Below are positions 2 through 64,000 of a DNA stretch of 64,000 nt, piece after piece. The notes beneath the pieces were generated by a model, which was given only the letters and a program-made list of their open reading frames with translations, ran no database searches and was not told the origin of the DNA. The stretch's first letter is position 1; each line of letters opens with the position of its first letter. Source of the stretch: Candidatus Omnitrophota bacterium (GTDB lineage Bacteria > Omnitrophota > Gorgyraeia > Gygaellales > Profunditerraquicolaceae); contig JBAZTA010000002.1 in the NCBI GenBank assembly GCA_041662125.1, positions 76,154 through 140,153 on the forward strand, read 5' to 3'. A program made the position numbers and the translations under genes.

Positions 2-3000
2 AAGCAAGTTTTGAGTATGGATAGTCAGTATGGTGATTGGGGTTTGTTTTCTTCCCGCATCAAACCGGCAACGCAGAAAATAGAACAATTCTTCGCGTCA
101 TCGCCGCTGGTATCATTAAAAGTCAGAGTTTTTGGTTTAACTGCCGCATTGCTCTGTCTTCCCGCGTTCGTGTTTGCCAGGACTTTTGAAGATGACTATT
201 ATTACCTTGAGGCTTTCCGTAATGTATTCCCTGTGATCTTGGGATTCGTTCAACAGCATTATTTCTTTATCGTCCTTGCCTCAGGGATTGCCTACGCGTA
301 TTTTGTCATATATAAACGCTGGGCAAAAAGCAGAAATAAAGAATTTACCGGGAAAGAACTTGAAGCGATGGCGGATACCGGCCTTAAAGCGGAAAATAGG
401 ACAATACAAGAAACTCTCGCTCCTTTATTGCGCAATTGTGAAAACGTTTTAAATTCCCAACGTATGACCGATGAAAGCGATCTTGATGGTATCTTAAATC
501 CGGCATTTCAAATCAATCAAATAACGCCCTTCTTTGTGAATATGGACAGGCCAGCCAGAGAAGCAACGGCAAAAATCCACGGTTCAATGGGAGAGTCATC
601 CAGGAAAGTCGCGCATAAAATTTACCGCATGCTGCGAAAAGGAATGGTTTCTCCTGATTTAAGGAGGAGCGTTTTTGTTAAATGCGATGAGATAATCCGT
701 ATTGCCCGGCATTCTTTAATATACAGTTACGGTATGCACGAGGGTAGTAATTGCCAGAAAGTGTCAGGATATATCCGTCCGCCGAATAGTTTTTGGGAAA
801 TAACCGCGATCCTTTCAGCGCCGCGCACGCTCTTTGGCCTTACCAGGGAAGGCTGGGTCAGTAGAAAGAAATATAATAAATTGGTCGTTGAGAAGCTCCT
901 GCCTTTGGGGAACACATTGGTTCCTGGTTTATACGATGAGAGCTTGATCAAGGAAAAATTAGAGCGGTACCTTAAATATATTTTCTCAGGGTGGAAGAAA
1001 TCAGAACTTGGCATTGAGATATGGTGGGGGCTTTTTAGCATGTTGCGCAGGTTGTCTACTACCATGTCATTTGCCTGGCTTGTGTATTTAATGATGCAGT
1101 CTCACCCCGCGCAGCTTGATTTATTCAGTTTTTGGAAACCGATCATGATCGCGTTATCGCCTATTTTATTGACTTGGGCAGTCTATCTCATTGCTATTAA
1201 ACTTGATATTTATTACCTATCACGATTGAAACGGTTAGATATATTAGAGCGGAAATTAAAGTCGCTTTCTGGTCAGGAATTCTTGTCCGAAGATCTGCTT
1301 CAAGGAGAGATGCTTTGTGAAGGTTATCGCCGGCTGAATAATGCCTTAGATATTGAGATCAATGGGGTAGAGCCGTCAGCGGACATTCTTTTTATTATGA
1401 CGGGAGATAATCAGGCAAATGCGCAGCGCTTGAGCCGTCATCTTGATGGATCAAAAGGAGTTCTGTGGAGAAAAGACGTTCCGGTCTTTATCGTCTCAAA
1501 TAAAGGCAGGGGCAACGGAATGTGTTTCTTAAAAACGCTGGAGCATCTTGATTTACATGCTCCCGCAGAACAATTCCTGGAAGCGTTGATGCAGGATGAA
1601 GATGCAGTATTATTGAATCCAGATTCTGGAGAGCACGGTTACCGTCATTTACGCGGAAAGAAAACCGGGGATTTAGGTGTATTCGCGTTGATCGCCGACA
1701 ATAAAGACCAGGAGTCAATGCTCAAAGAGCTTCCTTTAAAGGCTTTTGGAGGATTAACCGGCAGTATTAAAACTTTTGAATTACAGTTTTTAAATGGCTA
1801 TATTGCCTTGCGCGGGCTCAAAGAGGCAAAGAAAGAAAACCCTGGTGACAAGGATGTTTTTAACGGCGGCCTGGCGGTTTTTTGCGCGGATAGGATATAT
1901 ATCGGCCCCTTGGATTACTCAGGAGAAATTACCTTAGGCGGGGCGCTAACTTCTTATATCCAAATGAAAGTCCAGGAATTAGGCTTGTTTTTAGTTCACG
2001 GCGTTGGGGATATTGTTAAATACTTCGTGAAATTCTCTCACGATAAATTAGGCAACTACGTTGTGCGTGAAGCGGTGGGGTATATGTATGAGCTGGAGAA
2101 CCTTAAGAAACAGCAGATGCTTGCTTTTACGGGGAGCATTCTTATCGGTTTTAGAAACCCTGAAAAGATAAATACGTTGGTCAGGCTGCAGCGTGAATTA
2201 CAGAAATTTGTGATCATCCCGTATCTGCAGAAAAAACGTGTTATTCCGGAAATCAGGCTGCAGCAGGATATTTTAGTGCCGTTGATAATGACGTATCATG
2301 AGGAAGATATTTTTACCTATTTGTCCGCCCGAAAGAACCGTTTCCTGCCAATGAAACATAGAAAGTTTTACGAAAAGTGGTTTACTCATATCGAATTATA
2401 CTTTAAAACAAAGGCTCCGCTTGCTTTCCAGGTAAGCGCTCCTTATCCGAAGACTTCGGTGTACATTAAGAATACTCCTGATGAAATAAAGAATACTATT
2501 TTAAAAGATCTGCTTTTAGAGGAACAATCGTTGTATTTTCGCCAGGAAGCAGCCTCATATGAACAATTGCGGCGTTTGAATGATTGTGCCCTCGATAAAG
2601 CAGCAGCGGCAAGCCCGATGGATGTAAAAGAAATTTCTTTGGATGCCCGCAACCAAAAGATGCTTAATAAGCTCTGTGATGTCTGGATAACAGCAGTGAG
2701 AGGTTTTAAAGAAGGCCTGGAATCCAAGGCCTTAGTGGATCAATCTGAATATGATGATTTCTCCGCTTATATGAAATCAAGCGCTCAGACGATCAGTTCG
2801 TTCAGGTATGAGAATCCTAATATTGCCATGAGGGTTATCTTTCATACATTTTCCTGCGGTGATCCCTATCCGGAAGTTGATTTAGGGACGGCGTTTCAAA
2901 GCTTATCCCTTATCATTAAATTCGGCGTGAAAGAATCTCGCGATTTAGTTAAACCTTTGGAAGACCTGATAGGGATCATCGAAATCTTAAGGGGTACTAT

Positions 3001-6000
3001 TTATCAAACTAAAATACCGGTAGTTGCGCTTGCTCTTGATGGGATCCCGTCCTTATTTATACGTAAAGATGCTTTATTTAAGAATAAATCATCGTCAGCA
3101 ATATCGGTTCTTTACGCGCAAAAAGATATTTATGATTTAGTAGGTTCGTTTAAATGTTTAAATAGTATCATTGCCGGGGGCGGCGGTGATACCAAAGGGG
3201 TGATTGGCAATGTCTTTCCTTTAAAGGCGGCTTTTTCGATCCCTCAAGCTGCCGATTCCTATATATATTTCCCTAATGTGAAATATATGCTTGAGCATAT
3301 CTTCTTTGGGCCTGCTCCGACAAAATATTTCAAGTCTTTAATTGACGGTAAATTACAGTTGTTGAGCAACTGGAGAGATTCGAAATTTATTTTTGAGATC
3401 GGCCCTGAACTTACTCTTTCAGTGCCTTTGAAGAAGCGCAGGAATAAACCGGGTTATGTTGAGGTCAAGGGCCAGCCTGTTTTCGTAAACAGCCAATGGG
3501 GCGAAGGAAAAGTCGTGCGTACGTTGTCAAAAGACAATATACAGCTTTTACTGATGGATATATTGCCGGATTGGTATACGCTTGCTGACGATGCATCGAG
3601 AGTGTTTGATAAAGATTCATTAATTATTATAGGCGATATGGGGGGCGATATCCTTGCCCGTTACCCCGGCCCTATAGAGGATCATAAACATGCAGAGCGG
3701 TTTATGATCTCTGGGGTCACTGACCTCTGCCGCCTTCTCTTGGGCGCTGAATTGCAGCGGCGAGGATATACCGTTTTTGTCGCGATCTCTGCATTAGGCG
3801 GTGATTGTGAACTCAAGCGGACCGTTTCGATCTATCTTACTGAGCTTATGGAACTGGGATTTGTCAGGGCGTTGATCGATAATGTCGCGTATTACCGTAA
3901 CCATGACAGCCTTTTGCAGCGGATCAGAAAATTAGCTATTCCGGGTGAGGTCTCTCCGAATTTCTTCGAACGTATTTCAGCTTTCGCTAAAGGAGAACAG
4001 CCCTATTATGCCAAAGGTATTTCTCCGGAGAATTTATGTTTATGCGAGCCAGACCGCAGGATCAGATGTAAACCGATGCGGGGAGGATTAGATATGGAAG
4101 AAGCCCTTCCGGGCCTCTATCCTTATACGATCCTAATATATCCTTTAGATCTCATAAGTTTTATTGAAGATAAAGAATTAACCGGAAAAAGGTTAGGTTG
4201 GTGGGCTATCAATGATTACCTTGCGAACACCTTAGGATATGTGACGGAAGTGTATGGTTCAAAGATCAACGTTGAGACCGGTTCTTTGCATCGTATATTC
4301 GAAATTTATACTGCAAAGGGTAAAATAAAAGATAATGGGCAGGAGCTTCTGGCAATGGTGCTCAGCCAGGATTTCGGGATTAAGATCAGGCTTGCCGTTG
4401 CCATGGCGTTAGGCAGGAAGTTTAATAAAGTTACCGGCCCGGAGATAATAAAATTGCTTTATACCGAAGAATCAAATCCCTATGTCGTCAGTCAGATCGC
4501 TGAAGTCCTTGGAGTTATTCGTTATCGGCCGGCCCTGGCGCTTTTAGAAGCTTTGAAACGAAAGCCTAAGTCGTTCGGCGTTTGGCCATTCTTTCCGGGC
4601 AGTTTTTATCAGCATGCCGTTTCTACGATCAAAGAAAAAGCAAAAGTAGCGCTTGAGCTTATAGAAAAGGACGCCGCTTCTGCCGCATCGCCGGTCGTCT
4701 GCGGTGATTTCGGCAGCGTGTTGACGCAAAAGCAAATAGTGTCTCTTTTAGCGTCAAATGTGTTTGTTAATAAGAATCTTTTGAGAGTTTCAAACGTAAA
4801 AGTGGTTAAAATATATTCTCAAGCAAAAACTGCTCCCGAAGAGTTGGAATCCCAGTGCCCTGTTTTGGTCAACAGCGTGGCAAATGTTGTTTTATCGGTT
4901 TTGCCGTATCTATCTAAAAACCAGTTTGATCTCAATCAAATAAGAGCAAATGAGCATGCGGCCTTCCTCATGTTTGATGCTTTAGAGCAGTTTTTCCAGC
5001 AACACCTTCATTATTCAGGGATAGTTACTATTGGGGAAAAGCAGCGTTACGGCGTTCCGGGTTTAGTAGCCGCGGGTAAAAAGTTCGGAAGAGGGCCGGT
5101 AAAGGTCGAAATTGCTACGGATGTGATTGAAAGTTCTCAAAATATCACTGAACATAGCAAGAAAAACGCCTCTAATATGGCGACAGTTTTGGGAATAGGG
5201 GCAAAAGGCGATTTTATCGGCCTACCGGATGAATTGTATCTCAATAAAATAGCCGTTGGCAGCGCGGCGGCAGGGAAAGGTTTTTCGCCTCATTTAAACC
5301 AATCGGTTCGGGAAACGCTTGAAGCGTTATCTGCTGCTTTAGGAAAAAGCATTCATGAATTACGTGTCGCTCTTTTATTGCGGGACAGGCATGAAGAGTT
5401 AATCCATGAATTGATCGACGCAGGTATCAGTGTGGAGACAGAGGATCTGGCGGTTATGAAACAGGAAATTGCGCAAAAAGGAATATATAAAAACGGGAAT
5501 ATATATTTACTCACCCGAGGTGATTTTCTGCCTTTTGTCGGCCTTTACGCGGATACGTTAGATTGTATTTTAGGTGTTGGAAAGCCGACGGAAGGAGAGA
5601 TTACCTTTCATGTTACGCAGATGCTGGGCGGTCAGATGTGCTACCGCTTGGCCAGTTATGATGCTTTAAAGAATGGGGAGAATGATATTGTGCTCATCCG
5701 GGATGAGAATAATTTTAGTGAAAGAGAGATCGGTGTATTGCGCAATAGCGCTTTAACGGGCATGAGCAAGGATGCATTAAAGAAAAAGGCATACAGTGAG
5801 ATTTCTACCCATCCGCGGCTTCGTGATGCCGGGATCGCTATAGCATTCGTAAAAGATAATTATTGGGATAGAGATATTAAGGGCATTAAGGTCGATCTTG
5901 AAACGGGGGAGGTAACGGTCGATGTTTTTTGGGCAGGAGTTTCAGGGGATGCCAAGATCTTTAGGATAACATATGAATCTATGATTTCAGGAATTAAGGA

Positions 6001-9000
6001 TAAATTATTGTTTGAGCAAGATATTCAACAGAAGGCAAAATTGTATGCCGAGCTTGCCGGCTGTTATGCGGGATTCGGGCTTTTTAGAAAAGCCAAAGAC
6101 GCGATGATGGAATCTCTCAGTTTGACTCCTGAACAAAAAATGAGGAGCAGGTATCTTTCGGAGTATGCTCATTTCGAAGTACATCGCAGCCTCGTAGAAG
6201 AGCAAAAGAAATTTGCCGTCGCTAATGGGATCATGCATCTTTTACAGGCGATCACTTCCTGGGAGAACAACCTGGGGGCGCGCAGTCTTTTGAGAAGGCT
6301 TTGTAACTTCCTCGCTGATTCATATAGGATCAAAGCAGAGGCTCTTGAGAAGGTGCAGCAGCAAGATGGCGTTGAGAGGGCCAAGATGATCAGGGAAAAG
6401 TATGTTCTTGCGGAAACAAGCTATCGGGGAAGCATAAAATATTTCCCTCCCCAGGTAAAAATAGACGATGAATCTTTTAAACGCTCTGTGTCCCGGTTAA
6501 AAACAAGGTCAGAAGCTTTGGAATTAGAACGTCAGAGGCTGGAGTTTCAACTGGTAAGCTTGCAATTAAAGATCACGCAGTTGAAGCTGCATCAAGAGCA
6601 TACGCAGGGTTATTATGTGACGATAGGAGGCTTGTATGAAGAGATAGCTAAATTGTATAGCGCGTATGGGTTTCATCATCGGGCAGAAGTTTATTTAAGA
6701 AGGGCATTGAGATCGTATGAGGCCGTAAGCCAGCATTTTGGCGGGATACTGCCTACTGAAACCGTCAGAAGTATGGCTGATATCTATGTGGTGGAATATA
6801 TGTTTGAAGCCGCGCTTAAGATATACGCGCGTTTGCTGGATCCGAAGTCGGCATTTGCGGTTTTTTCTCCCAGACACGATGATTTACAGATAAGAGAAGA
6901 TTTCTATAAAGGGAAATATCTCCATGATTTTGAATCGGTCTTGCCGCACTATATTCAATGTTCGATGTTGCTTGCCAATGAGCCTGCCGAGGCGATAGCA
7001 GCGATGGAAGCAAAGACTAATGCGTGGTTGTTGTTTGCCGGTGAAGATATAAAAAGATGGGCAAAAGAAAGCCGCCTCTACGCGGATACTGAGGGCGTCT
7101 TATGGGTTAAAGAAGCGGATGCGGCAGCGCGGTTACTGGATGTTATCGTGCGTTATCAAAAAACGGGCAGTTCGTCTTCTGCGTTAGGCTTGTCTCAGGA
7201 AGTAAATAGTGTTGACGCTTTTTCTGGCCTTGCTCGAGGAAAGAAAGATGATCTGCGCCTGGGGCCTGAAGAACGCTGGTTGCTGCGCTGGATGAGTTCC
7301 TTTGATAAAGATGTTCTTGTTTCGCTTGTTGCAGAAGCTTCCCGGCAGGATATCCTGACCGCAGGGCAGCAAAAAGTTTTATTATGCGCTCTTGAAAAAG
7401 AGGCCGTATCTCCGCGCGCATTAGCTGTAGTGCTGGGGAAAGACCCATCTTCGGTCTCCCGGGGCTTAGTCGGCAGAAAAGATGCTGCTTTTGAAAAAGA
7501 AGGGGCGTATACAGGGATATGGGATCGTATCCCTGAACAGGATAAGGAGCACATTCTCGCAAATTTGTATGAAAAAATTGCGTTTCAGCCTTTGGTTTAT
7601 GCTTTAACCCCTTTTGCATTTGTCGAACCAAGGATTATCAGCGTTATAGAATATTTCATTTTTCTGGCGTTATCGCAAGGGGAATTTGAGGAACTTGCGG
7701 CTAACCTGACAGGATACCTGTATGTTTTTGAGAAGAATGGTCGATTTACTCTATCCGCTGTGGCGCAGGAATTGAAAATGAGCCGGGGTAATCTTCAGAA
7801 ATTTTTGCGGCGTCCAGTAAGAATTGAAGAATTACGGACTGTTCTTGATAAATCTCTCTATAATGCGTGGCTCCAAGCTTTGACGAACCACTATGCTCCT
7901 GTGAGCCTGAAAGTTTTATGCGGGCAGTTCTCGGATGAGCAGATAACAGGTATTGTTGTCAGGGCGGGAAAAGAATTCTTAAACGAATTGCTTGCAAAGA
8001 GAGAGCAAGAATACATTGCCAAAAAAGGAGAGGCTCGAGAAATGAAGGATATGTCAGCTGAGGACTTGAAATGTCTTATTACGGCAAGGCTGCTTGAAAA
8101 TACTGCATATAAAAAACTAGCGCAACGTTTTGGCGTGGCAGAAATAACTATTTTGAGATTTTTTGAAGGGCGTATTGAAGATCCCCGTAGCATTGAAGGG
8201 GCGATACCGCGGTTACATGCCTGGTTAATACAGAGGGAAGAAGTTACTGATGGTAAGAATAACGATCGGGTATTGCCTTCGCAAGATGATATCCCTCAAA
8301 CAAAGGTTGTTTTAGGCGAACTAACGGTTTTAGATGATGATACAAGGCAGGAAAATGACTTGCCTGTGGCGAGCGAAGAAGAGAGCGTTCGGCAAAACGA
8401 AAATGAGGGAGATCCATTGAAGCATATTCAGGACATACTTGAGCGGCTTGTATGGCTGCGGCAGCCGATGTTCCTCTCGTATCGTGAAAAGAGAGGATTT
8501 ATTGACCAGGAATTGGCAGGTATTGGGCGTTCAATACTGTGGATAATCCAAAATTTTCCGCAAACAACTCAAGAAGCTTCGTTTAAGCCTTTATGGAAAA
8601 AGGTCATCCAGGAGTTATACATTTTTAAAGATAAAGGGCTTGGTTACTCTTTACCTAATCTGGTCGCGCCTATTTTAAGCAGGAACAATAATAAGGCGAG
8701 CAGTTCTGTTTTGACGGTTTCTTCTGTGGGGCAGTTTCAGGAGAATAACGGCGCGCATAAAGCGCTTGCCGAATCTCTGCAAATCACTAAGAGATTTTAT
8801 GAATATGCTGGTTATTCCCTCTGGCACAAAACCGAGCAGCGTTTTGAAGATCGTCTTGTTGTAAATGTGGCTTATGGTTCGTCTCGCAACAGCCTTCTGC
8901 CGTCAAATAATTGCGATTTCCGTAAGCCAATCGCCGAAGATGTTATTTTGACCACAACTCGATGCGCGAACTGTATGGGAATAATAGGAGCAGGCTGGGG

Positions 9001-57000: not shown

Positions 57001-60000
57001 GTATGTAATTAAGGACCGGATCTTTACGCGCACAAACCTTGAATATTACTTCCTGCTTTATACATTTATGGGGGACCTTTCTTATGCGCAAGCCACTTTC
57101 ATTACGTCCCGCGTTGAGGAGAATATTCAGGATAATGATGACGTGATCGCGTTATACAACCTTCAGGAACAAGGCAAGGCTGTTTTCTTGCGGCAGGATA
57201 AGTTGTTTAACTATTTTGCGTTTAAAACTCATGAAACCGTAGAGGTCAAGGAAATAGATCTGGGGGATAAAAGAGTCATTTTGGTCAAAGATCCCCAGGG
57301 AAGGCTTTATGGACAGTTGGGCATTGATGCCCATATCAAATTGGCCCTTCAGCAAAGCCGGGTTACCTGGGATGTTACGGAGGAAGAATCCCGGTTTTTG
57401 GCAGAGGCGATACAAGGCGTATACCCGCCAGCGGTGCTAGTACCTTTGGAATTAGGCGTTGGGAAAAATGATTATATCAGGTACATAAAGAAAGATATGG
57501 AGAGTTTTATCGAGCAAGGCAAGGGGACCTGGTGTTTCCCCGATCATCTTTTGGATATCGCGCAGCGGTTCGGCTTGTATCCATCTGACCTGATAAAAGA
57601 CGCCTTCGTGAATAAGAATTTAAGCGAGCACACGCAAATAAGATATTATACAAAACTCATCGAGAATATATTTAGAAAGCAATTCCCTATCTACAACAGT
57701 TGTTCTATTTTATATGATGAGTCTCTGGCAGGATTATTCAAACTCAAAAGCGCGGCTGATTTTGAGCAGTTAGCGAAAGATATGTGGGATAAAACCGATT
57801 GTATGCAGGTCTATTTGAACGCAGTGATGATGCCTCATGGAGCATCTTTTGAGATCGGCTCTTTGCATCAGTTCATGAGCCGGGTCATCCTTCCTGAGCT
57901 AAGCCGTATACGCCCGCAGGGTGAGCCGTTGCGCATGCTCTGTTTGGGCTGCGAAGAAGGTGCTGATGCGTATATGCTAGCCATGGAATTATTAGAAAGC
58001 GGATGGGATACAAAAGCGCGGCCTGTTGAGATCACGGGCGTTGGCATTAACCGTTTTGCGATTGAAATTGCGCAAGCCGGGCATTTTAGGCGAAATAATA
58101 TCGATAAGCTTTCCGAGGAAACAGTGAATAAGTATTTTGCTTTGGACGCAGAAACCGGATTGTATGTAATAAATAGCCGTTTGAAAGCAATGGTGAGTTT
58201 TCAAACGGCAAACTTCTTAGAAGCGCAAATCCGCAAACTCTTGGGGGGCTTTGATTTTATTCTGCTTAATCAAATGATCGATTGCTTTTCGCATGAGGCC
58301 CATATGCCAGTGGAGCGGGATATTTTAAGAGAAATGCTTTCCCCGGGAGGATTTTATACCACTCACTATTCGCCCTCGCGTGTTGTCCCGGAAGTTGAGG
58401 TTAGTATGTATCATTTAACAGATAATCCTTTCAGGGAAAGTGTTGTTCAGAAAATTTGTTCTGAGTCAAGAATTTATAACGAATATATAAAAAGTTCTTC
58501 TCCTTTGACGAGTGATTTAAAAGGCCTGACTATTCTTGTGACTGCCGGGCCAAATCAGGAGCGTATCCCTGGAAGGCCGGAGTATATTACAAATTTCTCG
58601 TCAGGCAAACAAGGATTTGCCATCGCTGCTGCCGCAAAGGCGCGAGGCGCGCGCGTTATCCTTATCGCTGGGCCTACGTATTTAGAAACTCCTGATAACG
58701 TTATAAGGGTCGATGTGGTCACTGCCCTGGAAATGAAAGAAGCGGTAGCAAAATACCTGCGCTTTGCCGATGTTTACATTTCAGCCGCGGCAGTCGCCGA
58801 TTACCGCCCGGTAAAGCTCGAGAAAGAAGGCAGGCGCGATTTTACCGTAACACTCCACAATAATCCCGATATTTTAAAATGGGTCGGCAGCCTTAAGAAA
58901 GAAAAAAGTGAGTTTTCATCTCTGGTGGTGGTTGGTTTTGCCGCAGAGACTGTGGAGCCGGGAGAAATGGTGGAAGAGGCGCGCCGTAAATTTATCGCCA
59001 AGAACATGGATTTTATTTGCGCCAATAGAGTTGGGCAGGAGGGAAGCGGATTTCGCAGTGAAAACAATAAAGTAGTAATAATCAGGGAGAATAAAGACGA
59101 TGATCATTGTTTGGAAGCGTCAAAATCCGATGTCGCCAATAAGATATTAGATGCAGTTTTAGATGTCCGTGAAAGGCGTTCGCTTGGATCTGTTATCAGG
59201 GCTGTGGAGTTGGAAGGAGAGCTTCAGGAACAAAGCCAAGCGCTGCGGTCTACCCAGCAGGCGCGGTATCCGCCGTTTGCGGGCATCGCGGGAAAAACGA
59301 TTTTGATTTCTGCCGGATCGACAGAAGAATCCATTGACGGGGTCAGGATCGTCAGCCGTGCGGTAAAGTTCGATTTACCGTACGCGATCGCTGCAATAGC
59401 TCGTATAAGTGGGGCTAAGGTGGTCCTGATAAGCGGACCAACTCATACGCCTCCTCCCGAAGGTGTCAGATTTATTCAAGTAGCTACTGCCCAAGAGATG
59501 GCAAGACAGATAAGAAAATACCTCAAGCAAGCGGATATTTTCATCAATTTAGCCCGCCCGCCTTTTATCAAACCACGGCAGCAGCAATCCCAAAAGATCA
59601 AGAAACAAGGCAAGGAACTGACACAATGGTATTTTACCTTAAACGATGGGATCTCTCGTTTAGGTGAACGAAGCAGGCATTTAAATAGGATTTTGGTTGA
59701 AGACGGATATGAGTCAGTTGATTTAAGCGAAGCGCTCTTTTTTATCAGGGCTGCGATAGCAAAAGTGCTATTTCTCGCCCAGCCTCTTTCTTTATGCGCC
59801 GCGGAAGCTCCGCAAAGGAGTTTTGAGGAATATCGGGCTATCGGAGTTTTTGTGGTGAACAGCCATGGCTTGAGAATAAACTTTTCGCCTATCGAACAGG
59901 CTTTGAGTAAAGTAAATGATTATCTTTGTGAAAAGGGCCGCTTGGCATTAGTCAGGAATGCGTTGCGTGCGCAGGGTATCCAGGCGGAAAAAATAGATGA

Positions 60001-63000
60001 GGTAGTAACGCTGGCTCAAGATTATCTTAAGAATAGAAAAATAGAACTGGAACAGCTCAAAGAGATCCAGTTTTCTTATGCCCTTTTAGATTGGTTTAAG
60101 GCTGCGCAAATCCTATCTCTTCGCAAAGGTGAGTTTGTTTCTCTGGCAGAGCGGGGGGATCTGGCGCTGGTTCTGCACCAGGTAAAGGTGCGCGTTATAG
60201 CTGCCTCATTACCGCGGCATCCGTGCGCATCATCCGCGCTTAAACAAAAGATAACTCCTGCGAAAGTATCTACGTTGTTTATTGTTGCTATCCTGCTTAC
60301 CGTAGTTAATGCCGTTGCAGTTGTCGTTGCCGCTCTCTTTGGAAGCGAGATGACCATTTATCTGGCATCATTGGTATCGAACATCATTATTGCTCCTTTT
60401 GCGGAAGAGATTTTATTCAGAAGAGTTATATTTAAAGGTTTATTGGTTGATCGGTATAAGGTCAGTACCGGGAAAAGCATTTTTATAAGCGCGGCTCTTT
60501 TCGCGGCGTATCATTTAATTATCCCGTTTTTTGCCGGAATCAGGTTTATACCTATTAAGCAATTTTTGTCCGGGGTCGTATATGCGTCTGTGTATGTTAG
60601 GACACGATCGTTACTGGCTATTATTATTCTTCATGCTGTCAGTAATATAGTTACCGAGACAGCTGTTTTGTTCGGATTTATCAATCAAATGCCTTTTTAT
60701 GCTACTGCCGTAATGTTGATCGCAAGCCTGATTTTATTCCCCCGTAGGCCTGTTAGAAAAGCTTTTTCGAGCGGTGATGAAAAAGAGAAACTCAAAGAAA
60801 AGAAAGGCAAAGTTCTTCAGGAGAAAAAAGGCGCCGCGGCAGAAGGCCGCAAAAAAGGTAAAAAGAATGCTGCTTCTCAGAAAAAATCCAGCTCAAGCGC
60901 GCTTGGGGAAACGAATAACGAAAATCTGACTTTTGAATGGGGCAAAGACCGAATAGGGCAGTATTATTGGGACGCAGGATGTATCTCTATTTATGCTACG
61001 GAACAATTATTTGTGCTTAAACTTTTTGAGAATCCTTTGACACTGCGTTTTACGTTATTGATCGATAAAGCCAAAAAAGAGACTTTGATCTTATACGGCC
61101 CGCAAATTCCATTATTCTTCTGGGAAAGAGATAGTGAGGAGCGCCAGCAGCGTTATCAGCATAGGGATGAACCGTCTCTGGCAGTTAAATTCTTTCCAAA
61201 ATACCGGGAATTGCAGATCAGGGTTAATGAAGAGGTTTTCCAAGATTTATTGAGTCAGAATTTCCCGCTTTCAGGAACCTTTCCGGTAACTATGGAGAAC
61301 GGACTGCATTGGAGATTTGTGGAACACTTTACCCCGCTATTTTCTGTCCCTCCCGGGCATAGTAATAGGATCCATATTACTGTTGCGGGTATTGTAAGGG
61401 TATATTTGGAACAAAATGCCGATACCCAAGCAATTAAAAATATCCCGGAAGTATTGCGGCAACAATATATGTATAATTTTAATAGCTTGATAGAGCTGCT
61501 TGGTTTGCTGGTGGGGTATCCTGTTAAATACCTCAAGCGATACTCGGGGCTTTCAGCTTGCGGCGCATTGCATGAGTCTGGCGATTCCTTTGTTGAAGTT
61601 CTCGAAGGTCTTTTTGACGATTTTTTAAGGATTATTCCGGTAACCTATGATGAACATAAGAAGCGGCTTGTTTACAATGTTGCCTATCCTTTAGAGGGGA
61701 ATATTCTTCTTACTAAAACTCAAATTACGGACAGTATGATGAATTATCCTGTACCTTACGGAAAAAAGGTCGCGGTTTTTGAGATGTCAGATGGCGATCA
61801 TTTAGCTTTTGCGGGAAACTTTGTCAGCTCCCTTCAGGAAGAAAATGAGGTTAGGATTTTTACCAGTGGACAGCTTCCTTTAGAGCAGGTGACAGGAGAT
61901 TATGAACCTGATGTTATTCTGGTTCCGTATTGCCCGGATGCCAGAAGGCTGGTACGTCAGTATTCCTCTGTTAGGCCGCGTGAGTTGATGGCGTTCTATT
62001 ATGCTTCCCTGGAATTACCTCTTGAGTTTAATCTCGTCTTTTCTTTTGGTGAAGAAACCGCAGGAAAAGTTGTGGAAGCTGTTGGCGCGCATAAGTCACA
62101 GCAGGAACGCAGAGATTACAAAAGTTTTACCCGGTTTATCATGCAATATACGGGCGCTTTAGCCGGTTACTACGGTTTCACGCAGAAAAAAGATGCTTAT
62201 GCTCACGCCTTTAGTGTTACTCGCATAGAAAAAGGAAAAGTTTTGCCGGTTGATCTTTCAAAACGGTATGCGCTGGCATTTGAAAAAGAAAAACCGCATG
62301 CTGGGTTTACTCCTGTTAGGATAAATAATAATACTTATGTAAGAGCTTCTCCTCCTCATCCTGATGATATAGAAATCGCCGTAGGGGGTTTGATGGCGCA
62401 GCTTGCTCAAAAAGGGATAGAGGTCACAAACTTGATCTTTAGCAGCGGTGAGCGCGGCGTAGTCTTGAGTGAGGCGCAGGAGAAAAAAGGTTTAACCGGT
62501 GCCGAGATCCGCCGTGAAGAATTATGTAATGCCACAAAAATCTTAGCTCCCGGCGGAATGGTGAAGAACATTCATTTGGATTATGACTATACCTACGCAC
62601 GAGATCCGGAGGGGACACAAGAACAGTTGTATGCACTGGAAAAGGAATTATTAAAACAGCGTTCTTCCGGTAGAAATATCCCAGAAGTGGTTTTATTTAT
62701 TCCTCATCCTCGTGACGATAATAAAACCCATAGAATATTTGCCCGGCTTTTAGAGCAGGTGTGGGGCCGGTTATCTCAAGAGCATACTATTACTGTTACG
62801 GTCATTTATTACTTGGCGCCATCAGCCGGGAAGTATAACACTTTTTTCCCGACGACATATAATGTTTTGCCGCAGAGCGCTGATAATGTTCAGATGTTGA
62901 AAAAGGTTAAGTCCGTTGAGCCGTTTAAGCGGGCAATTTCTATTATTATCCCCTCGCGGACAGGCCTTTCAGCCCAGCAAGGCCCGCACCAGATGGAATT

Positions 63001-64000
63001 CGGCGAGTTTGGGGAGAGATTTTTCCGGGAGAGTTATAAAGACGGGAAATTAGTAGTTCAGAGCATAGCGCAGCCCAAGAGAAGCGCCTCTCCGCGGGGG
63101 GACGTACTGACCCTTCCCCTGTTAGCTGGATTAATCGCTCCTTTCGATTATAAACAATTTTACCTTTACAATGAGGCATTAAATAATCATCTGTCTTCTT
63201 TCTTTTTTACCTATGAGTGGCTTATTAAAGCAGGGGTATTTTCCTTAATTTTTATTCCTGCGGGATACGTTATTTATAGGTACATTTCGTATATAAAGAA
63301 AATATCATTGAAAAAACTTCCGCCGTATTTTTATCAGTCTTTAAAGACAGCAATCTTAAATAAATTCATGCTCTGTAATCTTGCCGTGTATGGCATTGGT
63401 TTGTACCTTGCTGATCAAATTGTGGGAGCCCCAGAGTATGTTATAAAAATCTGCCCTCTCAGCAATGCTTTATTATTCATATACATAGCAATGTCAATAT
63501 TAATTTACAAAATATCTTTGGAGTCAATTTTTAGTATAGATGCAAAGATTAATCAGTATTTAATTGAATTAAAGAGAATCAGGAAAACAAAAGATAATGA
63601 TAGAAGAAATAAAAATGTCCCCATTTCTCCTTCTGTTTCAAGTTCTCCTATAGAAGAGATACCTGCGGTATTGCGCAATGTAGCGAAAATATTGCAACCG
63701 CTCTTAAAACCTGATGAAGATTTCTATTTTAACGGAGGCATCGTCAGGGATTTGCTGTTAGGGAAGTTGTTGGATATTCGCGATATAGATATTATTATTG
63801 TTACCCAGGCCAATAGCCGCGTACAAGAGATAATAGATGAATTAAAGGCTCAGGGGTTGGAGAGAGACGGTTGTATCATGATGGATGGGGTTATTTTAGA
63901 TATAGGCAGTAATGAAGATGGTAAAGGTAATATTCACAGGCATGGTGATGGGGTTATCGCTTGTTTTACCCGTATGCTCGGTAGGCCCGTGTTGGTTAAA
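2..64000 (+). CDS. Internal fragment of a giant multi-domain ORF, at least 21,333 codons, 5' and 3' ends outside the window. Mosaic of enzyme-like, regulator-like and transmembrane modules.
   Basis: Codon phase starting at nt 2 shows no stop in any of about 30 regions I translated by hand (e.g. 2-1900, 9002-9060, 15062-15240, 17222-17760, 26162-26440, 28982-29090, 29702-30780, 39782-40324, 42002-42060, 46202-46320, 57902-58300, 58502-59100, 62342-62460, 63962-64000). The ORF track lists + strand ORFs only in the other two phases and none in this phase, although an in-frame ATG sits at nt 17. That is expected only if no in-frame stop exists in the window. Codon-like composition is uniform, and diverged paralogous modules stay in the same frame. 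Confidence 0.85.
95..109 (+). repeat. First copy of the recurring inter-module linker A-S-S-P-L (gcg tca tcg ccg ctg).
   Basis: The same [S/A]SP[LIMV] peptide, frequently encoded by the identical nucleotide string tcgccgctg, recurs in frame at about 25 further positions (listed in findings). Confidence 0.6.
110..331 (+). other. Cluster of hydrophobic, transmembrane-like helices.
   Basis: Translation VRVFGLTAALLCLPAFVFA and VFPVILGFVQQHYFFIVLASGIAYAYFVIY has the length and hydrophobicity of TM helices. More TM-like helices lie at about 1030-1220 (MSFAWLVYLMMQ, IMIALSPILLTWAVYLIAI). Confidence 0.4.
4322..4570 (+). other. HEAT/PBS-lyase-like repeat block.
   Basis: GIKIRLAVAMALGRKFNKVTGPEIIKLLYTEESNPYVVSQIAEVLGVIRYRPALALLEALK fits the V-R-x-A-A-x-x-A-L-G consensus spacing of HEAT-like repeats. 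Confidence 0.3.
7682..7813 (+). other. Helix-turn-helix-like motif, one of about three in 7400-8170.
   Basis: TLSAVAQELKMSRGNLQKFLRR resembles a Fis/XRE-type HTH. Nearby are LAVVLGKDPSSVSRGL and KKLAQRFGVAEITILRFF. Confidence 0.3.
9692..10300 (+). other. HEAT/ARM-like alpha-solenoid repeats.
   Basis: Repeating units such as DPRMRAYAYRIIGAIG, LRMLLLIGQQEG and PQAVVLCLIKSYTDDPSMIPVIDKIL recur with a 30-40 aa period. Confidence 0.35.
11027..11515 (+). repeat. Copy 1 of a conserved domain of unknown function (signature GH-x-VI-x-G ... FFFK ... EF ... TGE-x-I-x-VH ... IGG-x-RP ... MES-x-LDE).
   Basis: GHIVILGQVPQSGELKIGRKWARLDASLYGLSNYLLEMNNGIPVRMFFFKTHTALEFLPAVNNKTGGIEVVHMGQIF...LGDLSIGGGRPHSD...GLVWRLTSLESDLDRAYLRIM aligns with copies at 47465 and 49259. 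Confidence 0.5.
14696..14902 (+). other. ACT-like small regulatory domain upstream of the HD domain.
   Basis: LMRFTIPHQPAQLLRITRLLRERGINIQSFMTPTFSQYHQNMRFIMQLGIP has a beta-alpha-beta ACT-like pattern. Sequence-weak. Confidence 0.25.
15062..15469 (+). other. RelA/SpoT-type HD domain, like a (p)ppGpp hydrolase or Mesh1-type small alarmone hydrolase.
   Basis: MMHPLDVAIIAANQFGIRDEGLLEMIILAALLHDTIEDGDIS...FGDDIYAIVNLLTK...IAYLRQL...IARLIKIADRIHNLQTLAG matches the SpoT HD signatures HP-x-x-VA, AALLHD-x-IEDT and LIKLADRLHNMRTL. Confidence 0.75.
15842..16162 (+). other. Second HD-type metal-dependent phosphohydrolase domain.
   Basis: HTLSHGDDVSDLAGYLAQHLGL...RIASQLHDVEKIHNREV...IEFHHRPQM has the H...HD...H...D spacing typical of HD domains. 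Confidence 0.4.
16742..17182 (+). other. Site-2 protease, peptidase M50B (SpoIVFB-like) intramembrane zinc-metalloprotease module.
   Basis: Hydrophobic helix FTIPLTILFVIPLTLIFIIASILHEYVHLLMAKIFGLETGKVRLF carries HExxH in a TM segment followed by G-x-x-V. Downstream FIYLAGPAMDLFLGAVFLF matches the AGP-x-x-N-x-x-L motif, and NSLNPKYSTDEGLKSDGY matches N-x-x-P-x-x-x-x-DG. Confidence 0.55.
17213..17227 (+). repeat. Linker S-S-S-P-L (agc tcc tcg ccg ctg).
   Basis: In-frame copy of the recurring linker, with the octamer tcgccgct conserved. Confidence 0.6.
17228..17878 (+). other. Minimal protein-kinase-like fold module (eukaryotic-like, RIO or Kdo-kinase-like).
   Basis: NLVVRISK matches the beta-3 Lys. 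EFQRFQQLARLG matches the alpha-C Glu. MLVERVQGNSL is a hinge. YISDFKPANIMF matches the catalytic loop HRDLKPANIL. VICDAM sits in the DFG position. The module is delimited by SSSPL linkers at both ends (17213-17227, 17879-17893). Confidence 0.5.
17981..19228 (+). repeat. PHP (polymerase and histidinol phosphatase) phosphoesterase module, paralog copy 1.
   Basis: VDLHTHTVESDGYSNPAAAILEAFERGMSGLAITDHNTF...IPGLEITTYFEGVVVHLLVYLPGYY...VAHTGSKLAIAHPNE carries the PHP His/Asp motifs. It aligns along its full length with 38111-39385 (about 40-50% identity by eye). Confidence 0.7.
19502..19900 (+). other. Class-I SAM-methyltransferase-like fold (weak).
   Basis: PLYVLDWGAGNLRAAVRLGKML...IIDSAPNLF...LLSPHGVIVFDVYG resembles motif I hh-D-x-G-x-G and a post-motif-II strand. 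Confidence 0.3.
20171..20500 (+). other. TM helix cluster with a second HExxH motif (HEWLH), a possible membrane metalloprotease-like module.
   Basis: IVSIFALMLILQV, LAIFITGVILTLLNFMSGLGANILPF and YLLVWVLNKYF are TM-like. LLIHEWLHAYQIILIYHAG holds an HExxH at 20466-20480. Confidence 0.3.
20732..20743 (+). repeat. Linker S-S-P-L (tcc tcg ccg ctg).
   Basis: In-frame recurring linker. Translation is TNPVSSPLTVTDGF. Confidence 0.6.
20744..21601 (+). other. Alpha/beta-hydrolase-fold-like module (weak).
   Basis: VVISVHGLGCV (HG-x-G start), MVESYGAAVFVEW (nucleophile-elbow-like) and YVTGGDHYAAMTNPAVV (C-terminal His region) appear in the order expected for an alpha/beta hydrolase. Confidence 0.3.
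21611..21619 (+). repeat. Linker (A)-S-P-L (tcg ccg ctg).
   Basis: Translation is SAASPLALQD. Confidence 0.6.
23462..23473 (+). repeat. Linker S-S-P-L (tcc tcg ccg cta).
   Basis: Translation is EHASSPLEKV. Confidence 0.6.
24200..24799 (+). other. Nucleotidyltransferase head domain of the poly(A) polymerase or tRNA CCA-adding type, copy 1.
   Basis: EIIIAGGPVRDLLLGLRFNRGDNEAGIKDVDVIL matches the PolyA_pol head signature GG-x-VRD-x-LLG ... D-x-D. Confidence 0.65.
25085..25093 (+). repeat. Linker (SSSAA)-S-P-L (tcg ccg ctg).
   Basis: Translation is VSSSAASPLVLR. Confidence 0.6.
25196..25798 (+). repeat. Unknown-function module A (YYVNAG ... F-x-IHVVVTN ... GGFNGIMCNVGG ... GGWLQVDA).
   Basis: Aligns with module A-prime at 27173-27733: YYVNAGQEKDIEFLINTIAKYMG versus YYINAGHQPEITFLIESIADYMK, FEIHVVVTNVDPRG versus FKVHVVVTNIVPRR, GGFNGIMCNVGGD versus GGFNGILCNVGGA, GGWLQVDA versus DGWLQVDA. 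Both end in an [S/A]SPL linker. Confidence 0.55.
25802..25810 (+). repeat. Linker (A)-S-P-L (tcg ccg ctg).
   Basis: Translation is IGASPLAQRR. Confidence 0.6.
25811..26566 (+). other. Subtilase (peptidase S8)-like module with the catalytic Ser replaced by Cys.
   Basis: IIILDDFVID is an Asp-box-like stretch and VPHGILIEN is a His-box-like stretch. FVMCAGNGRQNSPGGY matches the Asn/oxyanion region AAGN. NVIPVAAAEISKTGYTKAYYSCFGPDVMFCADGSDSQNAQGTCIAAARISL parallels subtilisin SVIAVGA...SFSS-G-x-x-DV-x-APG...GTSMAAPHVAG, with GTC in place of GTS. Confidence 0.45.
27173..27733 (+). repeat. Module A-prime, paralog of 25196-25798.
   Basis: See module A. About 45% identity by eye. Followed by the SSSPL linker at 27734-27748. 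Confidence 0.55.
27749..29044 (+). other. Class-I SAM-dependent methyltransferase module, PrmA-like (ribosomal protein L11 MTase type).
   Basis: AERFRGARVLDLGCGRGISSLFAALLGAKTVVGVDNDP matches motif I plus the acidic post-I residue. LPFDIVMANIG matches the PrmA F-D-h-h-h-A-N-I motif. Core at 28190-28500. Confidence 0.7.
29045..29056 (+). repeat. Linker A-S-P-L (gcc tcg ccg ttg).
   Basis: Translation is KISAASPLASSIELLIFDLT. Confidence 0.6.
29057..29755 (+). other. HAD-superfamily hydrolase-like module (beta-phosphoglucomutase or phosphatase subfamily).
   Basis: IELLIFDLTQTL is a motif-I position reading D-L-T rather than D-x-D. YRLALATNNG matches motif II (S/T). KGKPDPGIFYELCKLQGVSPERAVSIGNSRQHDLEAAAQIGM matches motifs III-IV (K ... 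G-D-S-x-x-D, here GNS-x-x-D). Confidence 0.55.
29750..29764 (+). repeat. Linker S-A-S-P-L.
   Basis: agc gcc tcg ccg cta, in frame. Confidence 0.6.
30062..30745 (+). other. Sigma-70-family module (regions 2.1-2.4 and region 4) embedded in the giant ORF.
   Basis: AAREVLIVTNVPMVIYRVIRQY...DDLIQVGIYGRGDRVGGLARAVERFEPERGIRFISFALQWIDAVLLQAVRE parallels RpoD region 2 (LVEANLRLVVSIAKKY...[41 protein letters not shown]). LQLEISERDKDILSRLLDAEKQSYIANHYRIKPQRVQQIFKRLTKMLKE parallels region 4 (...[20 protein letters not shown]). Confidence 0.6.
30761..30775 (+). repeat. Linker S-A-S-P-L.
   Basis: agt gcc tcc ccg cta, in frame. Confidence 0.55.
31622..31792 (+). other. Phosphoribosyltransferase (type I PRTase, ComF/GntX-like) module with an atypical PRPP-binding loop.
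   Basis: VTDVDLRGKSVLLLDDAAAERNVHLACMERILRAGATQVFVVRIG follows the PRT pattern (hydrophobic strand, DD, loop, helix, GA..V) but reads DDAAAERN where the canonical motif is DD-x-x-TGGT. Confidence 0.35.
32195..32455 (+). other. Class-I methyltransferase-like module (PrmA-like core).
   Basis: MHVIDCGSGRAELSLAALRLNSSVDSIEIDS is motif I. REIAIVSNIGSWG matches the PrmA-like x-h-h-V-S/A-N-I motif. Bounded by TSPL (31817-31828) and SSPI (about 32672). Confidence 0.45.
35882..36136 (+). other. ACT domain-like module.
   Basis: FELSILAEDKPGLIALVISALSDSGISMFRLAPPQKESGLLSYEFIFQP...EADISKALSEIEGITYEVRLVP matches the ACT pattern (strand, G-x-h helix, strand; D/E-D-x-P-G-h-h). Confidence 0.45.
38111..39385 (+). 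repeat. PHP phosphoesterase module, paralog copy 2.
   Basis: GQIDLHTHTLLSDAYATPSAMVLKAYEEGLAGIAITDHDMF...IPGLEITTLFEGVEVHLLVYLPGY...VAQAGAKLAIAHPSE. Co-linear with copy 1 from the N-terminal SAARAIIEEVLG helix to the C-terminal tail. Ends at the ASPM linker. Confidence 0.7.
39782..40324 (+). other. TIM-barrel phosphate-binding module, ThiG (thiazole synthase)-like or IGPS-like.
   Basis: IQLIGECGIGEPEHVRQVLKMGCNGVLVNNAITQSADPIAAAVAFRDAV resembles the ThiG C-terminus (VDAGVGT-x-SDAA-x-AMELGCDAVLMNTAIA-x-A-x-DPV-x-MA-x-AF). Confidence 0.35.
41882..42040 (+). other. Transmembrane helix cluster.
   Basis: GGISTCLLMFGLFLSIFYAVAAYFESYNVLFVPLFIVWACRFYW. Two hydrophobic helices. Confidence 0.4.
44072..44596 (+). 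other. Phosphoribulokinase/uridine-kinase family P-loop kinase module (intact Walker A).
   Basis: PLYIVSVGGGAGVGKTTFVDRLKRAL is a Walker A of PRK/URK type. VQVIILDGLHV parallels the IIIEGLH motif. PIFMDTAVDVLKAWRFQQEW parallels FVDTD-x-DVRL-x-RRI-x-RD. Confidence 0.65.
45350..45700 (+). other. Possible GNAT acetyltransferase-like fold (weak).
   Basis: IYNIDIFPNMQREGIAKVILLKLFASCIEAERHLTIYDAGCADRIYNLVKYYF resembles GNAT motif A (Q/R-x-x-G-x-A ... h-x-h-x-V ... N ... A). Confidence 0.25.
47465..49258 (+). repeat. Tandem repeat unit 1 (about 1.79 kb, 598 aa): unknown domain copy 2 plus a charged helical tail.
   Basis: GHAVIAGTMPQGGSLSLGGYLFKFTQYGGVDYELEVEAGLLKRIFFMNDYSLVEFLSVLDRCTGEIIDLHCGKI...CQSMESEFDETFSLI...WINFGEEYSYRY...GELLAVFEKWSDK aligns residue-for-residue with unit 2, which begins 1794 nt downstream. 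Confidence 0.6.
49259..51100 (+). repeat. Tandem repeat unit 2: unknown domain copy 3 plus a coiled-coil-like tail.
   Basis: GHVVIRGVLKGNFALRIGEYSFGFRGYADSAYELEVDNGILRQIFFFKDHTLFEFFPIIDNHTGEVIDVHRGTI...CTSMESGLDEPFILI...WMDFGADCGYGF...GELIEVFERWSEN. About 35% identity to unit 1 by eye. Confidence 0.6.
50402..51250 (+). other. Charged coiled-coil-like segment.
   Basis: Runs such as LETEKIRVSGEKTIARRADTIRALIVEVNSLRQKIRRMDEKTAKLLEEDL and KEIRRKRLLSSREKELVRNLREDLRQANALASLEQL show heptad-like R/E/K/L periodicity. The - strand ORF 50725-51117 is its antisense shadow. Confidence 0.4.
52082..52399 (+). other. Pol-beta-superfamily nucleotidyltransferase module of GlnD/GlnE type.
   Basis: PFSVWMVGSMGYLGLARKGISDVNLLVLTE matches the h-G-S-x-G-R-G-E-L ... 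S-D-h-D-L-h-h-L catalytic motif of GlnD/GlnE-type NTases. Confidence 0.45.
54260..54730 (+). other. Uridine-kinase/PRK-like module with a degenerate P-loop (candidate pseudokinase).
   Basis: ADIKIFLECDEIERLQRIKDY and DADYVVDT parallel the uridine kinase C-terminal motifs. The Walker-A position reads AIIRITSRPGADEAEII, with no G-K-T/S. Confidence 0.3.
56228..56401 (+). other. Possible GHKL-ATPase N-box-like segment (weak).
   Basis: NYGEIHFALRDLLHNALVHGNHFKLSLPVFF resembles the E-x-x-x-N-A-x-x-H-G N-box of RsbW/SpoIIAB/histidine-kinase ATPases. Confidence 0.2.
57854..58330 (+). other. CheR-type protein-glutamate O-methyltransferase-like module.
   Basis: GEPLRMLCLGCEEGADAYMLAMELLESGW...VEITGVGINRFAIEIAQAGHF...LSEETVNKYF...YVINSRLKAMVSFQTANFLE...GGFDFILLNQMIDCF parallels CheR (LRIWSAACSTGEEPYSLAI-x-L ... 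I-x-ATDID ... A-x-x-G-x-Y ... YF ... V-x-F ... N-L-L ... FD-x-I-F-C-R-N-V-h-I-Y-F). Confidence 0.75.
58502..59134 (+). other. CoaB (phosphopantothenate-cysteine ligase; C-terminal Dfp/CoaBC domain) module, motifs intact.
   Basis: [54 protein letters not shown]...VIRVDVVTALEMKEAV...ISAAAVADYRP...LHNNPDIL...VVGFAAET...KNMDFICANRV...GFRSENNKVVII is co-linear with E. coli Dfp CoaB ([47 protein letters not shown] ... CAAVADYR ... KNPDIV ... VVGFAAET ... KNLDLICAND ... GFNSDNN). Confidence 0.85.
59282..59662 (+). repeat. Degenerate second CoaB-like half-domain, tandem to the intact one.
   Basis: KTILISAGSTEESIDGVRIVSRAVKFDLPYAIAAIARISGAKVVLISGPTHTPPPEGVRFIQVATAQEM keeps the CoaB fold signature, but the SSGK and AAVADY motifs are lost (SRAVKFDL, INLARPPF). 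Confidence 0.5.
60266..60760 (+). other. CPBP-family (CAAX protease/bacteriocin-processing, Abi) intramembrane metalloprotease module.
   Basis: Four hydrophobic helices carry the three CPBP motifs in order: APFAEEILFRRVIF (EExxxR), ISAALFAAYH (FxxxH) and IIILHAVSNIV (HxxxN). Confidence 0.8.
60761..60907 (+). repeat. Lys/Gly/Ala-rich low-complexity basic segment.
   Basis: SGDEKEKLKEKKGKVLQEKKGAAAEGRKKGKKNAASQKKSSSSALGE, immediately after the last CPBP helix. Confidence 0.5.
62342..62800 (+). other. PIG-L/LmbE-family deacetylase module (GlcNAc-deacetylase fold, like BshB/MshB).
   Basis: RASPPHPDDIEIAVGGLMAQLAQKGIEVTNLIFSSGERG matches the A-H-P-D-D-E-x-x-G-x-G-G-T-h-A ... H-x-V signature. Downstream IPHPRDDNKTHRI supplies the H-x-x-D-H-like metal ligands. 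Confidence 0.75.
63200..63499 (+). other. Transmembrane helix cluster.
   Basis: AGVFSLIFIPAGYVIYRYI, MLCNLAVYGIGLYLADQIV and NALLFIYIAMSILIYKI are TM-like. Confidence 0.35.
63701..64000 (+). other. Nucleotidyltransferase head domain (poly(A) polymerase or CCA type), copy 2, truncated by the window end.
   Basis: DEDFYFNGGIVRDLLLGKLLDIRDIDIIIVT matches GG-x-VRDLLLG ... D-I-D. Paralogous to 24272-24430. Confidence 0.6.

Follow-up and report, generated by a model that had tools for sequence, protein, structure and literature searches.

A giant multi-enzyme protein of an Omnitrophota bacterium, probably anchored in the membrane at dispersed sites

Introduction

A stretch of 64,000 nucleotides from a Candidatus Omnitrophota bacterium (positions 76,154 to 140,153 of contig JBAZTA010000002.1, assembly GCA_041662125.1; hereafter the window) lies wholly inside a single giant gene, whose length exceeds 21,333 codons. 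The product is best read, with a probability of roughly 65%, as a giant polytopic protein that carries many enzyme modules and is anchored in the membrane along its length. This is the reading that an original prediction, made from the sequence alone, had put forward, and it draws its strength from the matches of two hydrophobic clusters to the CPBP and M50 membrane-protease families and from the conservation of two further clusters (2 and 4). Giant bacterial proteins of 20,000-150,000 residues have been recognised recently and are functionally unexplained, and the side of the membrane on which their enzyme modules lie is a central question.

In the arrangement proposed here, two kinds of anchor would tie the polypeptide to the cytoplasmic membrane, at seven or eight sites in all. 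Short helical hairpins (clusters 1, 2, 4, 5 and probably 7) would expose 4-24 residues outside. The second kind would consist of membrane-protease modules: a three-helix core of S2P/M50 type, a CPBP/Rce1-like module with six helices, and the hairpin of cluster 4 together with its HExxH motif.

The giant open reading frame

Frame +2 of the window (positions 2-64000) comprises 21,333 codons with no stop in a six-frame stop count and is open at both ends; the remaining five frames hold 848-1855 stops each. Every Pfam match lies in this open reading frame (ORF), and the clusters and modules described below are on the forward strand, with residue numbers referring to its translation.

The window sequence is coding and under purifying selection, because the corresponding frame of a relative is also open and the ratio of nonsynonymous to synonymous substitution rates (dN/dS) is low. 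The relative is a locus (L002) on the 838-kb metagenome contig Ga0265297_10000008, where one frame is open over the 20.7 kb examined, and it aligns with residues 17308-17991 and 18557-21044 of the window at 71-77% amino-acid identity. The Nei-Gojobori method gives a dN/dS of 0.20 for the 2,485 codons in the alignment; the CPBP cluster taken alone has 0.18 and an unannotated linker 0.25.

The window has a GC content of 0.39-0.46, a coding-strand GC skew that is positive in all 2-kb bins (0.06-0.24) and an AT skew of about zero. Searches of the window for tRNA and Rfam families gave no matches. The opposite strand holds two ORFs of 150 residues or more; neither has a Pfam match, and nothing credible was found on that strand.

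Hydrophobic clusters and membrane modules

The translation was scanned with the Kyte-Doolittle scale (KD), averaged over 19 residues (KD19), and with a Hessa-type free-energy sum. KD19 peaks are present in all seven intervals that had been proposed as hydrophobic. All nine segments with KD19 >= 2.0 lie within these seven clusters, and the annotated soluble domains of the ORF (2,665 residues) contain one peak of KD >= 1.6 and none of KD >= 2.0. Altogether 22 candidate helices cover 454 of the 21,333 residues (2.1%, as judged by hydropathy and not by DeepTMHMM).

The counts of hydrophobic windows are no higher than composition would give. Windows with KD19 >= 1.6 number 21 against 34 +/- 5 in composition shuffles, and those with KD19 >= 2.0 number nine against 8.2. 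Clustering alone is modestly enriched over shuffles, with two multi-segment clusters against 0.14 at KD >= 2.0 and five against 2.8 at KD >= 1.6. Runs of 18 uncharged residues with KD >= 1.6 occur 13 times (7.4 +/- 2.8 in shuffles); the same criterion finds 30 in 119 natural soluble CoaBC proteins (50,976 residues), or about 12 per 21,000 residues, and four of these 119 proteins reach KD >= 2.0. Hydropathy by itself thus proves little, and separate support is needed for the transmembrane (TM) status of every cluster. Isolated peaks at residues 1619, 2539, 3942, 5386, 9597, 19792 and 19908, among others, were rejected as TM helices, for they contain charged residues or lie in annotated soluble domains.

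Judged in this way, TM status is best supported for the two clusters with membrane-protease matches (6 and, on a borderline match, 3), backed by conservation for two (2 and 4) and suggested by hydropathy and flanking charge for three. The count of at least seven TM clusters that had been put forward accordingly stood as to the positions, but not in full as to their nature, as cluster 1 (in part) and clusters 5 and 7 depend on hydropathy that fails the chance controls.

The case for cluster 6 (60272-60742, residues 20091-20247; about six helices) as a CPBP/Rce1-like intramembrane protease module is strong, as far as sequence similarity can tell. The region matches PF02517 at 58-61 bits (cut-off 22.4) over profile positions 5-93 of 93, the Pfam Rce1-like match being placed at residues 20121-20217, and the motifs EExxxR, FxxxH and HxxxN are intact as EEILFRR, FAAYH and HAVSN. 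These motifs are invariant between the window and a sediment-metagenome locus (L003) whose module is 51% identical, and they are conserved in L002 too, where the module is 77% identical. A search of PDB sequences with cluster 6 gave nothing usable, and a pattern search derived from the CPBP alignment found nothing in GTDB genomes and IMG/VR.

Cluster 3 (16742-17101, residues 5581-5700) is a borderline S2P/M50-like membrane-protease module of three helices, identified by its Peptidase_M50 match, its motifs and its KD19 profile. A 23-residue helix of KD 2.56 (residues 5581-5603) is directly followed by HEYVH (residues 5604-5608); a second helix (5645-5669) contains AGPxxD, and a third (5679-5700) leads into NP...DEG/SDG. 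The Peptidase_M50 match (residues ~5594-5704) scores 29.6 bits in a 400-residue segment (cut-off 27.2) and 22.1 bits in a 5,000-residue piece, the alignment being limited to the first half of the profile (positions 3-106 of 221). The third-ligand motif of S2P proteases, NxxPxxxLDG, is present only in a degenerate form, INSLNPKYSTDEGLKSDG, outside the Pfam alignment. A single-sequence AlphaFold2 (AF2) model is poor, at a predicted local distance difference test score (pLDDT) of 55, and shows the order helix, beta-hairpin, helix, helix, helix. Foldseek against the PDB returned nothing below E = 5, with generic helical bundles only, and no PDB sequence matched. A word-indexed protein search with residues 5400-7000 and with the S2P module had no matches, the first search probably being saturated by random words. 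The labels S2P and CPBP given in the original prediction hold, that of S2P as a borderline case, with an HExxH in the helix, an M50 score above the cut-off in the 400-residue segment and an Rce1-like score well above its own.

Homologues were also sought with a chimeric query of cluster regions in an exhaustive search of 1.84 billion representatives (E <= 1e-3). Twelve proteins matched, most of them at an unannotated all-alpha cassette (224-1291, residues ~75-430), recognised from its homologues and an AF2 model and bounded by the second helix of cluster 1 and the hairpin of cluster 2. The homologues are 25-29% identical, and their origin is split among Endomicrobium, Elusimicrobia and Ca. Omnitrophica. 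An AF2 model from 11 sequences (pLDDT 73, predicted template modelling score 0.69) is all-helical, the last two being long antiparallel helices at residues 337-367 and 374-426. Neither the cassette nor its homologues have a Pfam match, and Foldseek against the PDB found only generic helical bundles. The cassette recurs in long proteins, at times in two copies per protein, with the conserved motifs GNxIxPxLY and LG(I/M)ExxW.

Clusters 2 and 4 are hydrophobic hairpins that are kept in distant homologues. Cluster 2 (1055-1210, residues 352-370 and 381-403) has a KD19 of 2.31 and a Hessa sum of -0.7. Its columns in 12 homologous modules have a mean KD of 0.8-1.6 over 46-69 residues, compared with -0.1 to -0.95 in the preceding soluble part, the last 15 residues of which, forming the N-terminal flank of the hairpin, are rich in lysine and arginine (K/R). 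Cluster 4 (20186-20479, residues 6729-6747 and 6772-6797; KD19 2.11 and 2.08) is a hydrophobic hairpin followed by HEWLH at residues 6822-6826. Over 169 residues it shares 32% identity with the C-terminal part of P0136, a metagenome protein of 3,884 residues. The match covers both hydrophobic segments, and HEWLHAYQ (20465-20479) corresponds to HELMHAYQ in P0136. Pfam and PDB sequence searches with cluster 4 returned nothing, and the P0136 module likewise has no Pfam match; this unannotated module of hairpin and HExxH could be a membrane metalloprotease.

Cluster 1 (122-313) contains two candidate TM helices, residues 41-59 and 84-104 (KD19 2.04 and 1.73), separated by an acidic loop and followed by a C-terminal flank with six K/R in 15 residues; the sequence immediately after the second helix is KRWAKSRNKE. 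A TM-like helix and a K/R run also precede the cassette in P0131, P0132, P0135 and P0137.

Cluster 5 (41912-42037, residues 13971-13992 and 13997-14012) is a tight hairpin with a 4-residue loop, a KD19 of 2.16 and a Hessa sum of -1.35, and K/R residues flank it on either side but are absent from the loop. Cluster 7 (63098-63508) comprises three candidate helices at residues 21073-21092, 21121-21143 and 21150-21169, with KD19 values of 1.78 and 2.13, a 28-residue loop containing six K/R and a further short hydrophobic stretch of 16 residues (21033-21048). The search of 1.84 billion representatives found no homologue of either cluster 5 or cluster 7, and no equivalent of cluster 7 is present downstream in L002. 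An eighth candidate site, absent from the original prediction, is an isolated single helix at 9539-9604 (residues 3180-3201, LYVFLSAILSLAVITAYFQPII), with 22 uncharged residues, a mean KD of 1.94 and six lysines and arginines in its N-terminal and four in its C-terminal flank.

Topology of the protein

The distribution of positive charge (lysine plus arginine, K+R) around the hairpins fits the positive-inside rule for in-out-in insertion. In the order N-terminal flank, loop and C-terminal flank, the counts are 2, 2 (with four acidic residues) and 6 for cluster 1, 2, 1 and 5 for cluster 2, and 2, 0 and 4 for cluster 5. In cluster 6 they alternate as 3, 0, 5-6, 2, 2, 0 and 5, a pattern consistent with six helices and with the two ends on the inner side. 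A hairpin, like the module of six helices, brings the chain back to its original side, so that the long soluble stretches would remain in the cytoplasm.

Topologies were scored by taking every subset of 11 putative helices together with 11 fixed ones, in both orientations, and maximising the K+R bias. The best of the 8,192 combinations uses all 22 helices with the N-terminal side inside and has a bias of +46, its inside flanks containing 64 K+R in 316 residues (0.20) and its outside flanks 18 in 147 (0.12), relative to 0.13 over the whole protein. All outside loops in this model measure 4-24 residues except the segment of residues 3202-5580, between the lone helix and the first S2P helix, which is the only segment that might be outside. 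A model without the lone helix and without the third helix of the S2P module reaches 44, with everything kept inside.

The cytoplasmic stretches would then include FBPase, S-adenosylmethionine (SAM)-dependent methyltransferases, HAD, ThiG, a uridine-kinase-like P-loop module, CheR, CoaB and PIG-L, and the modules that need SAM, ATP or CTP would remain beside their cofactors, with residues 3202-5580 as the possible exception. With outside loops this short and no large hydrophilic domain to translocate, the co-translational insertion of more than 21,000 residues is therefore plausible, and it might proceed by way of the signal recognition particle, YidC and Sec. The original prediction had also envisaged enzyme modules displayed on one or both faces of the membrane; the display on both faces has little support, given hairpins with loops of 4-24 residues outside and SAM-, ATP- or CTP-dependent modules inside, and would concern residues 3202-5580 at most.

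If the in-out-in hairpins are real, no large domain would need to be exported, cofactor-dependent enzymes would be reconciled with a membrane-bound giant, and the implausible outside calls of parity-based predictors would find an explanation. The embedded intramembrane-protease modules are, in addition, candidates for processing, and processing in cis by these proteases is possible in view of their motifs.

Weighing the alternatives

Several points weigh against a protein anchored at seven or eight sites. The hydropathy counts are no higher than in composition shuffles or in natural soluble CoaBC proteins, and what identifies clusters 5 and 7 and the helix at residue 3180 is hydropathy together with flanking charge. 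The number of helices in cluster 7 is odd unless the 16-residue stretch is included. In the S2P-like module the third zinc-ligand motif is degenerate, the model has a pLDDT of 55 and no PDB fold matches. The charge bias was optimised post hoc, and the top model, at 46, stands barely above alternatives at 44, which makes it suggestive. Finally, the canonical S2P orientation would place a SpoT/RelA-like HD domain outside the cell.

The last point leads to the first alternative, namely that the chain alternates between the two sides, with residues 3202-5580, or everything after a three-helix cluster 7, being extracytoplasmic. In S2P proteases of the RseP type, the HExxH helix runs from outside to inside. 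The top-scoring topology does include the helix at residues 3180-3201, and it does give the HExxH helix of the S2P module this canonical orientation; the lone helix supplies the parity for it at residue 5581, with about 2,380 residues, SpoT-like HD domain included, left outside. Much of the content of giant proteins has, moreover, been called outside in published DeepTMHMM runs. However, the margin in score is only 2 of 46, the SpoT/RelA-type HD hydrolase in residues 3202-5580 has cytoplasmic substrates, and the module at residues 3543-3900 of the same segment has paralogues at residues 15760-16631, a segment predicted to be inside. A nucleotidyltransferase head lies downstream of cluster 7, and West-Roberts et al. 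themselves judge such placements unreliable (West-Roberts et al., 2023; 10.1101/2023.11.21.568195). Alternating sides are thus a tentative proposal that deserves consideration, yet one that is probably wrong.

A more restrained proposal is that only the S2P-like and CPBP modules lie in the membrane and that the other clusters are cores of soluble domains or amphipathic segments, leaving two, or perhaps four, attachment sites. It is favoured by the hydrophobic-window counts, which are at or under the shuffle expectation, by the uncharged-run criterion, which soluble CoaBC proteins satisfy about as frequently, and by the want of homologues for clusters 5 and 7. It is nonetheless unlikely, for it leaves unaccounted that all segments with KD >= 2.0 fall in clusters and none in the 2,665 annotated soluble residues, that clusters 2 and 4 stay hydrophobic across homologues of 25-33% identity as their flanks diverge, and that paired uncharged helices of 19-25 residues, with loops of 4-24 residues and K/R flanks, are typical TM hairpins.

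The protein could also be a membrane-tethered polyprotein in which the embedded proteases cut in or beside the TM clusters to give many smaller mature products. Protease catalytic motifs occur at three of the eight membrane sites, two of only three HExxH motifs in the 21,333 residues adjoin TM clusters, and giant proteins have been suggested to undergo cleavage after translation, albeit by other peptidases, C39 and S8 (West-Roberts et al., 2023; 10.1101/2023.11.21.568195). On the other hand, the S2P motif set is incomplete, the proposed cleavage is read from motifs, and the usual targets of CPBP and S2P enzymes are other proteins, all of which makes such a polyprotein quite improbable. The same low credence is given to its bolder form, a self-processing polyprotein that would release or regulate dozens of housekeeping-type modules and in which some 2,400 residues, from the lone helix to the S2P module, would be exported.

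The last alternative is an assembly artefact or a sequence of no function, with clusters that mean nothing. It could draw on the lack of homologues for most of the ORF and on the finding that an exact 41-mer of the window had no match in GTDB genomes, JGI metagenomes and IMG/VR, but it is hardly credible, as chance cannot give a 64-kb stop-free frame, dN/dS is low in unannotated linkers too, and the independent 838-kb contig carries a closely similar open frame.

Comparison with known systems

Membrane-anchored multi-enzyme architecture of this kind is already published for Omnitrophota-type giant proteins and is not new. Among 916 giant proteins analysed with DeepTMHMM, 94% carry a signal peptide or TM helices, the latter at a flat density of ~2% of residues (Nielsen and Lui, 2026; 10.64898/2026.06.07.730766). 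The classes distinguished in that study include a 'multi-enzyme metabolic cluster' and a 'TM-only' class, the latter taken to be membrane-anchored with cytoplasmic domains. The protein analysed here shares with the multi-enzyme class an ORF of more than 10,000 residues, many unrelated Pfam enzyme domains, FBPase among them, and dispersed TM helices at a closely similar density (2.1% by hydropathy, as against ~2%). It also shares the conflict between a predicted outside location and enzymes of cytoplasmic type: FBPase-type domains had been predicted outside, with the caution ('but... an overlooked transmembrane') that a missed helix may mislead (West-Roberts et al., 2023; 10.1101/2023.11.21.568195).

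A divergent SecA DEAD-like domain occurs in most full-length giants. Unlike the Omnitrophota giants described, the 21,333-residue fragment has no SecA_DEAD, C39, S8 or dockerin domain in Pfam searches. SecA had no match at E <= 0.01 within the window, beyond both ends of which the ORF extends, and the dockerin/TSP3 repeats (PF00404, PF18884) that would mark a dockerin-type giant protein, or Archaeovorin, had none within the window. A subtilase named in the original prediction was not borne out: neither a Pfam S8 match (E <= 0.01) nor any motif of the GTSxAxP, HGT or DTG type was found. M50 and CAAX/CPBP modules, for their part, are not mentioned in the main texts of West-Roberts et al. (2023) and Nielsen and Lui (2026).

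The S2P-like module resembles members of the S2P family (Peptidase M50; RseP, SpoIVFB, MjS2P) in its HExxH at a helix end, beta-hairpin, helix with AGPxx(N/D) and helix ending in NP...D(E)G, and differs from them in lying mid-chain in a giant protein, in matching half of the Pfam profile, in its degenerate LDG and in having no PDB match. Cluster 6 resembles the CPBP/Rce1-like type II CAAX prenyl endopeptidases (PF02517) in its full-length match, its three motif blocks and its multi-helix hydrophobic core, but it is embedded in a giant ORF, where family members otherwise stand alone at ~250 residues.

Very long bacterial ORFs are also known from giant repeat adhesins of the RTX/BAP type, which are anchored at the N- or C-terminus. 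The window ORF differs from these in its enzyme-like content, in anchors that are spread along the chain and in the absence of tandem Ig-like or cadherin-like repeats; a self-comparison found no more than a few two- or three-copy modules and no long tandem arrays. The contrast with N-terminally anchored giant adhesins drawn in the original prediction is borne out by the dispersed clusters and by the lack of a tandem beta-rich repeat array.

Enzyme modules and internal paralogues

Thirteen distinct Pfam families are robustly represented, in one or two copies each and with none dominant; their residue positions were converted from coordinates in 5,000-residue scan pieces. From the N-terminal end, a HEAT match at residues 1453-1519 (25.6 bits, slightly under the Pfam cut-off of 27.7) is followed by FBPase_glpX (1658-1885) and by HD_4 (~5013-5149), the latter within a SpoT/RelA-type N-terminal HD region recognised by NCBIfam (~4989-5236). 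PHP matches lie at two places, ~6055 and ~12763. Further along are a PrmA-type methyltransferase (~9389-9482), HAD (~9690-9868), a weak Sigma70_r2 match (~10075), ThiG (~13246-13430), PRK/uridine kinase (~14696-14881) and CheR (~19289-19450). The DFP/CoaB module begins at residue 19506, in two stretches, and reaches residue 19879 according to a tblastn match of the sediment-metagenome locus L001. PIG-L (~20785-20920) and a weak match to the PolyA_pol nucleotidyltransferase head (~21241) complete the series.

The CoaB module (58517-59638) is very well conserved, with 262 bits and 41-48% identity to CoaBC proteins of the ordinary kind. The CoaC flavoprotein domain, which every top ordinary match possesses, is missing from it. 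Part of the CoaB region is duplicated (58502-58810 and 59270-59575). A PHP-containing module is present in two copies of 43-44% identity (17879-19201 and 38027-39322), an unannotated module in three of 27-38% identity (10628-11701, 47279-48103 and 48827-49894) and a 160-residue module in two of 45% identity (25181-25663 and 27155-27637). None of these internal paralogous modules includes a TM cluster. A search of PDB sequences with the repeat module at residues 3531-3950 gave nothing usable.

Relatives of the locus

Close homologues of the locus were found on the 838-kb metagenome contig and on one sediment contig, and nowhere else. Relative to L002 the relationship is mosaic, the alignable spans being 51923-63133 of the window and 2-12907 of L002. 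A stretch of 3.3 kb specific to L002 lies between its equivalents of residue 17569 and of residues 17555-17991, about 1.7 kb (residues 17991-18557) is specific to the window, and similarity stops abruptly at residue 21044, just upstream of cluster 7. The pattern suggests the gain, loss or swap of whole modules.

The sediment-metagenome contig ADZX01000494.1 carries the loci L001 and L003, whose CoaB and CPBP modules are 48-51% identical to those of the window. The CPBP module lies upstream of the CoaB module there, the reverse of the order in the window. Its ORFs, all on one strand, encode 5,046, 2,521 and at least 1,522 residues; the second overlaps the upstream first by ~30 nt and is followed downstream by the third, and together they are probably one giant gene broken by frameshifts. 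The GenBank entry EFK96411.1 ('coaBC', 702 residues) is part of the 2,521-residue ORF (L001, 1-16714). Dispersed hydrophobic clusters are present in this relative as well.

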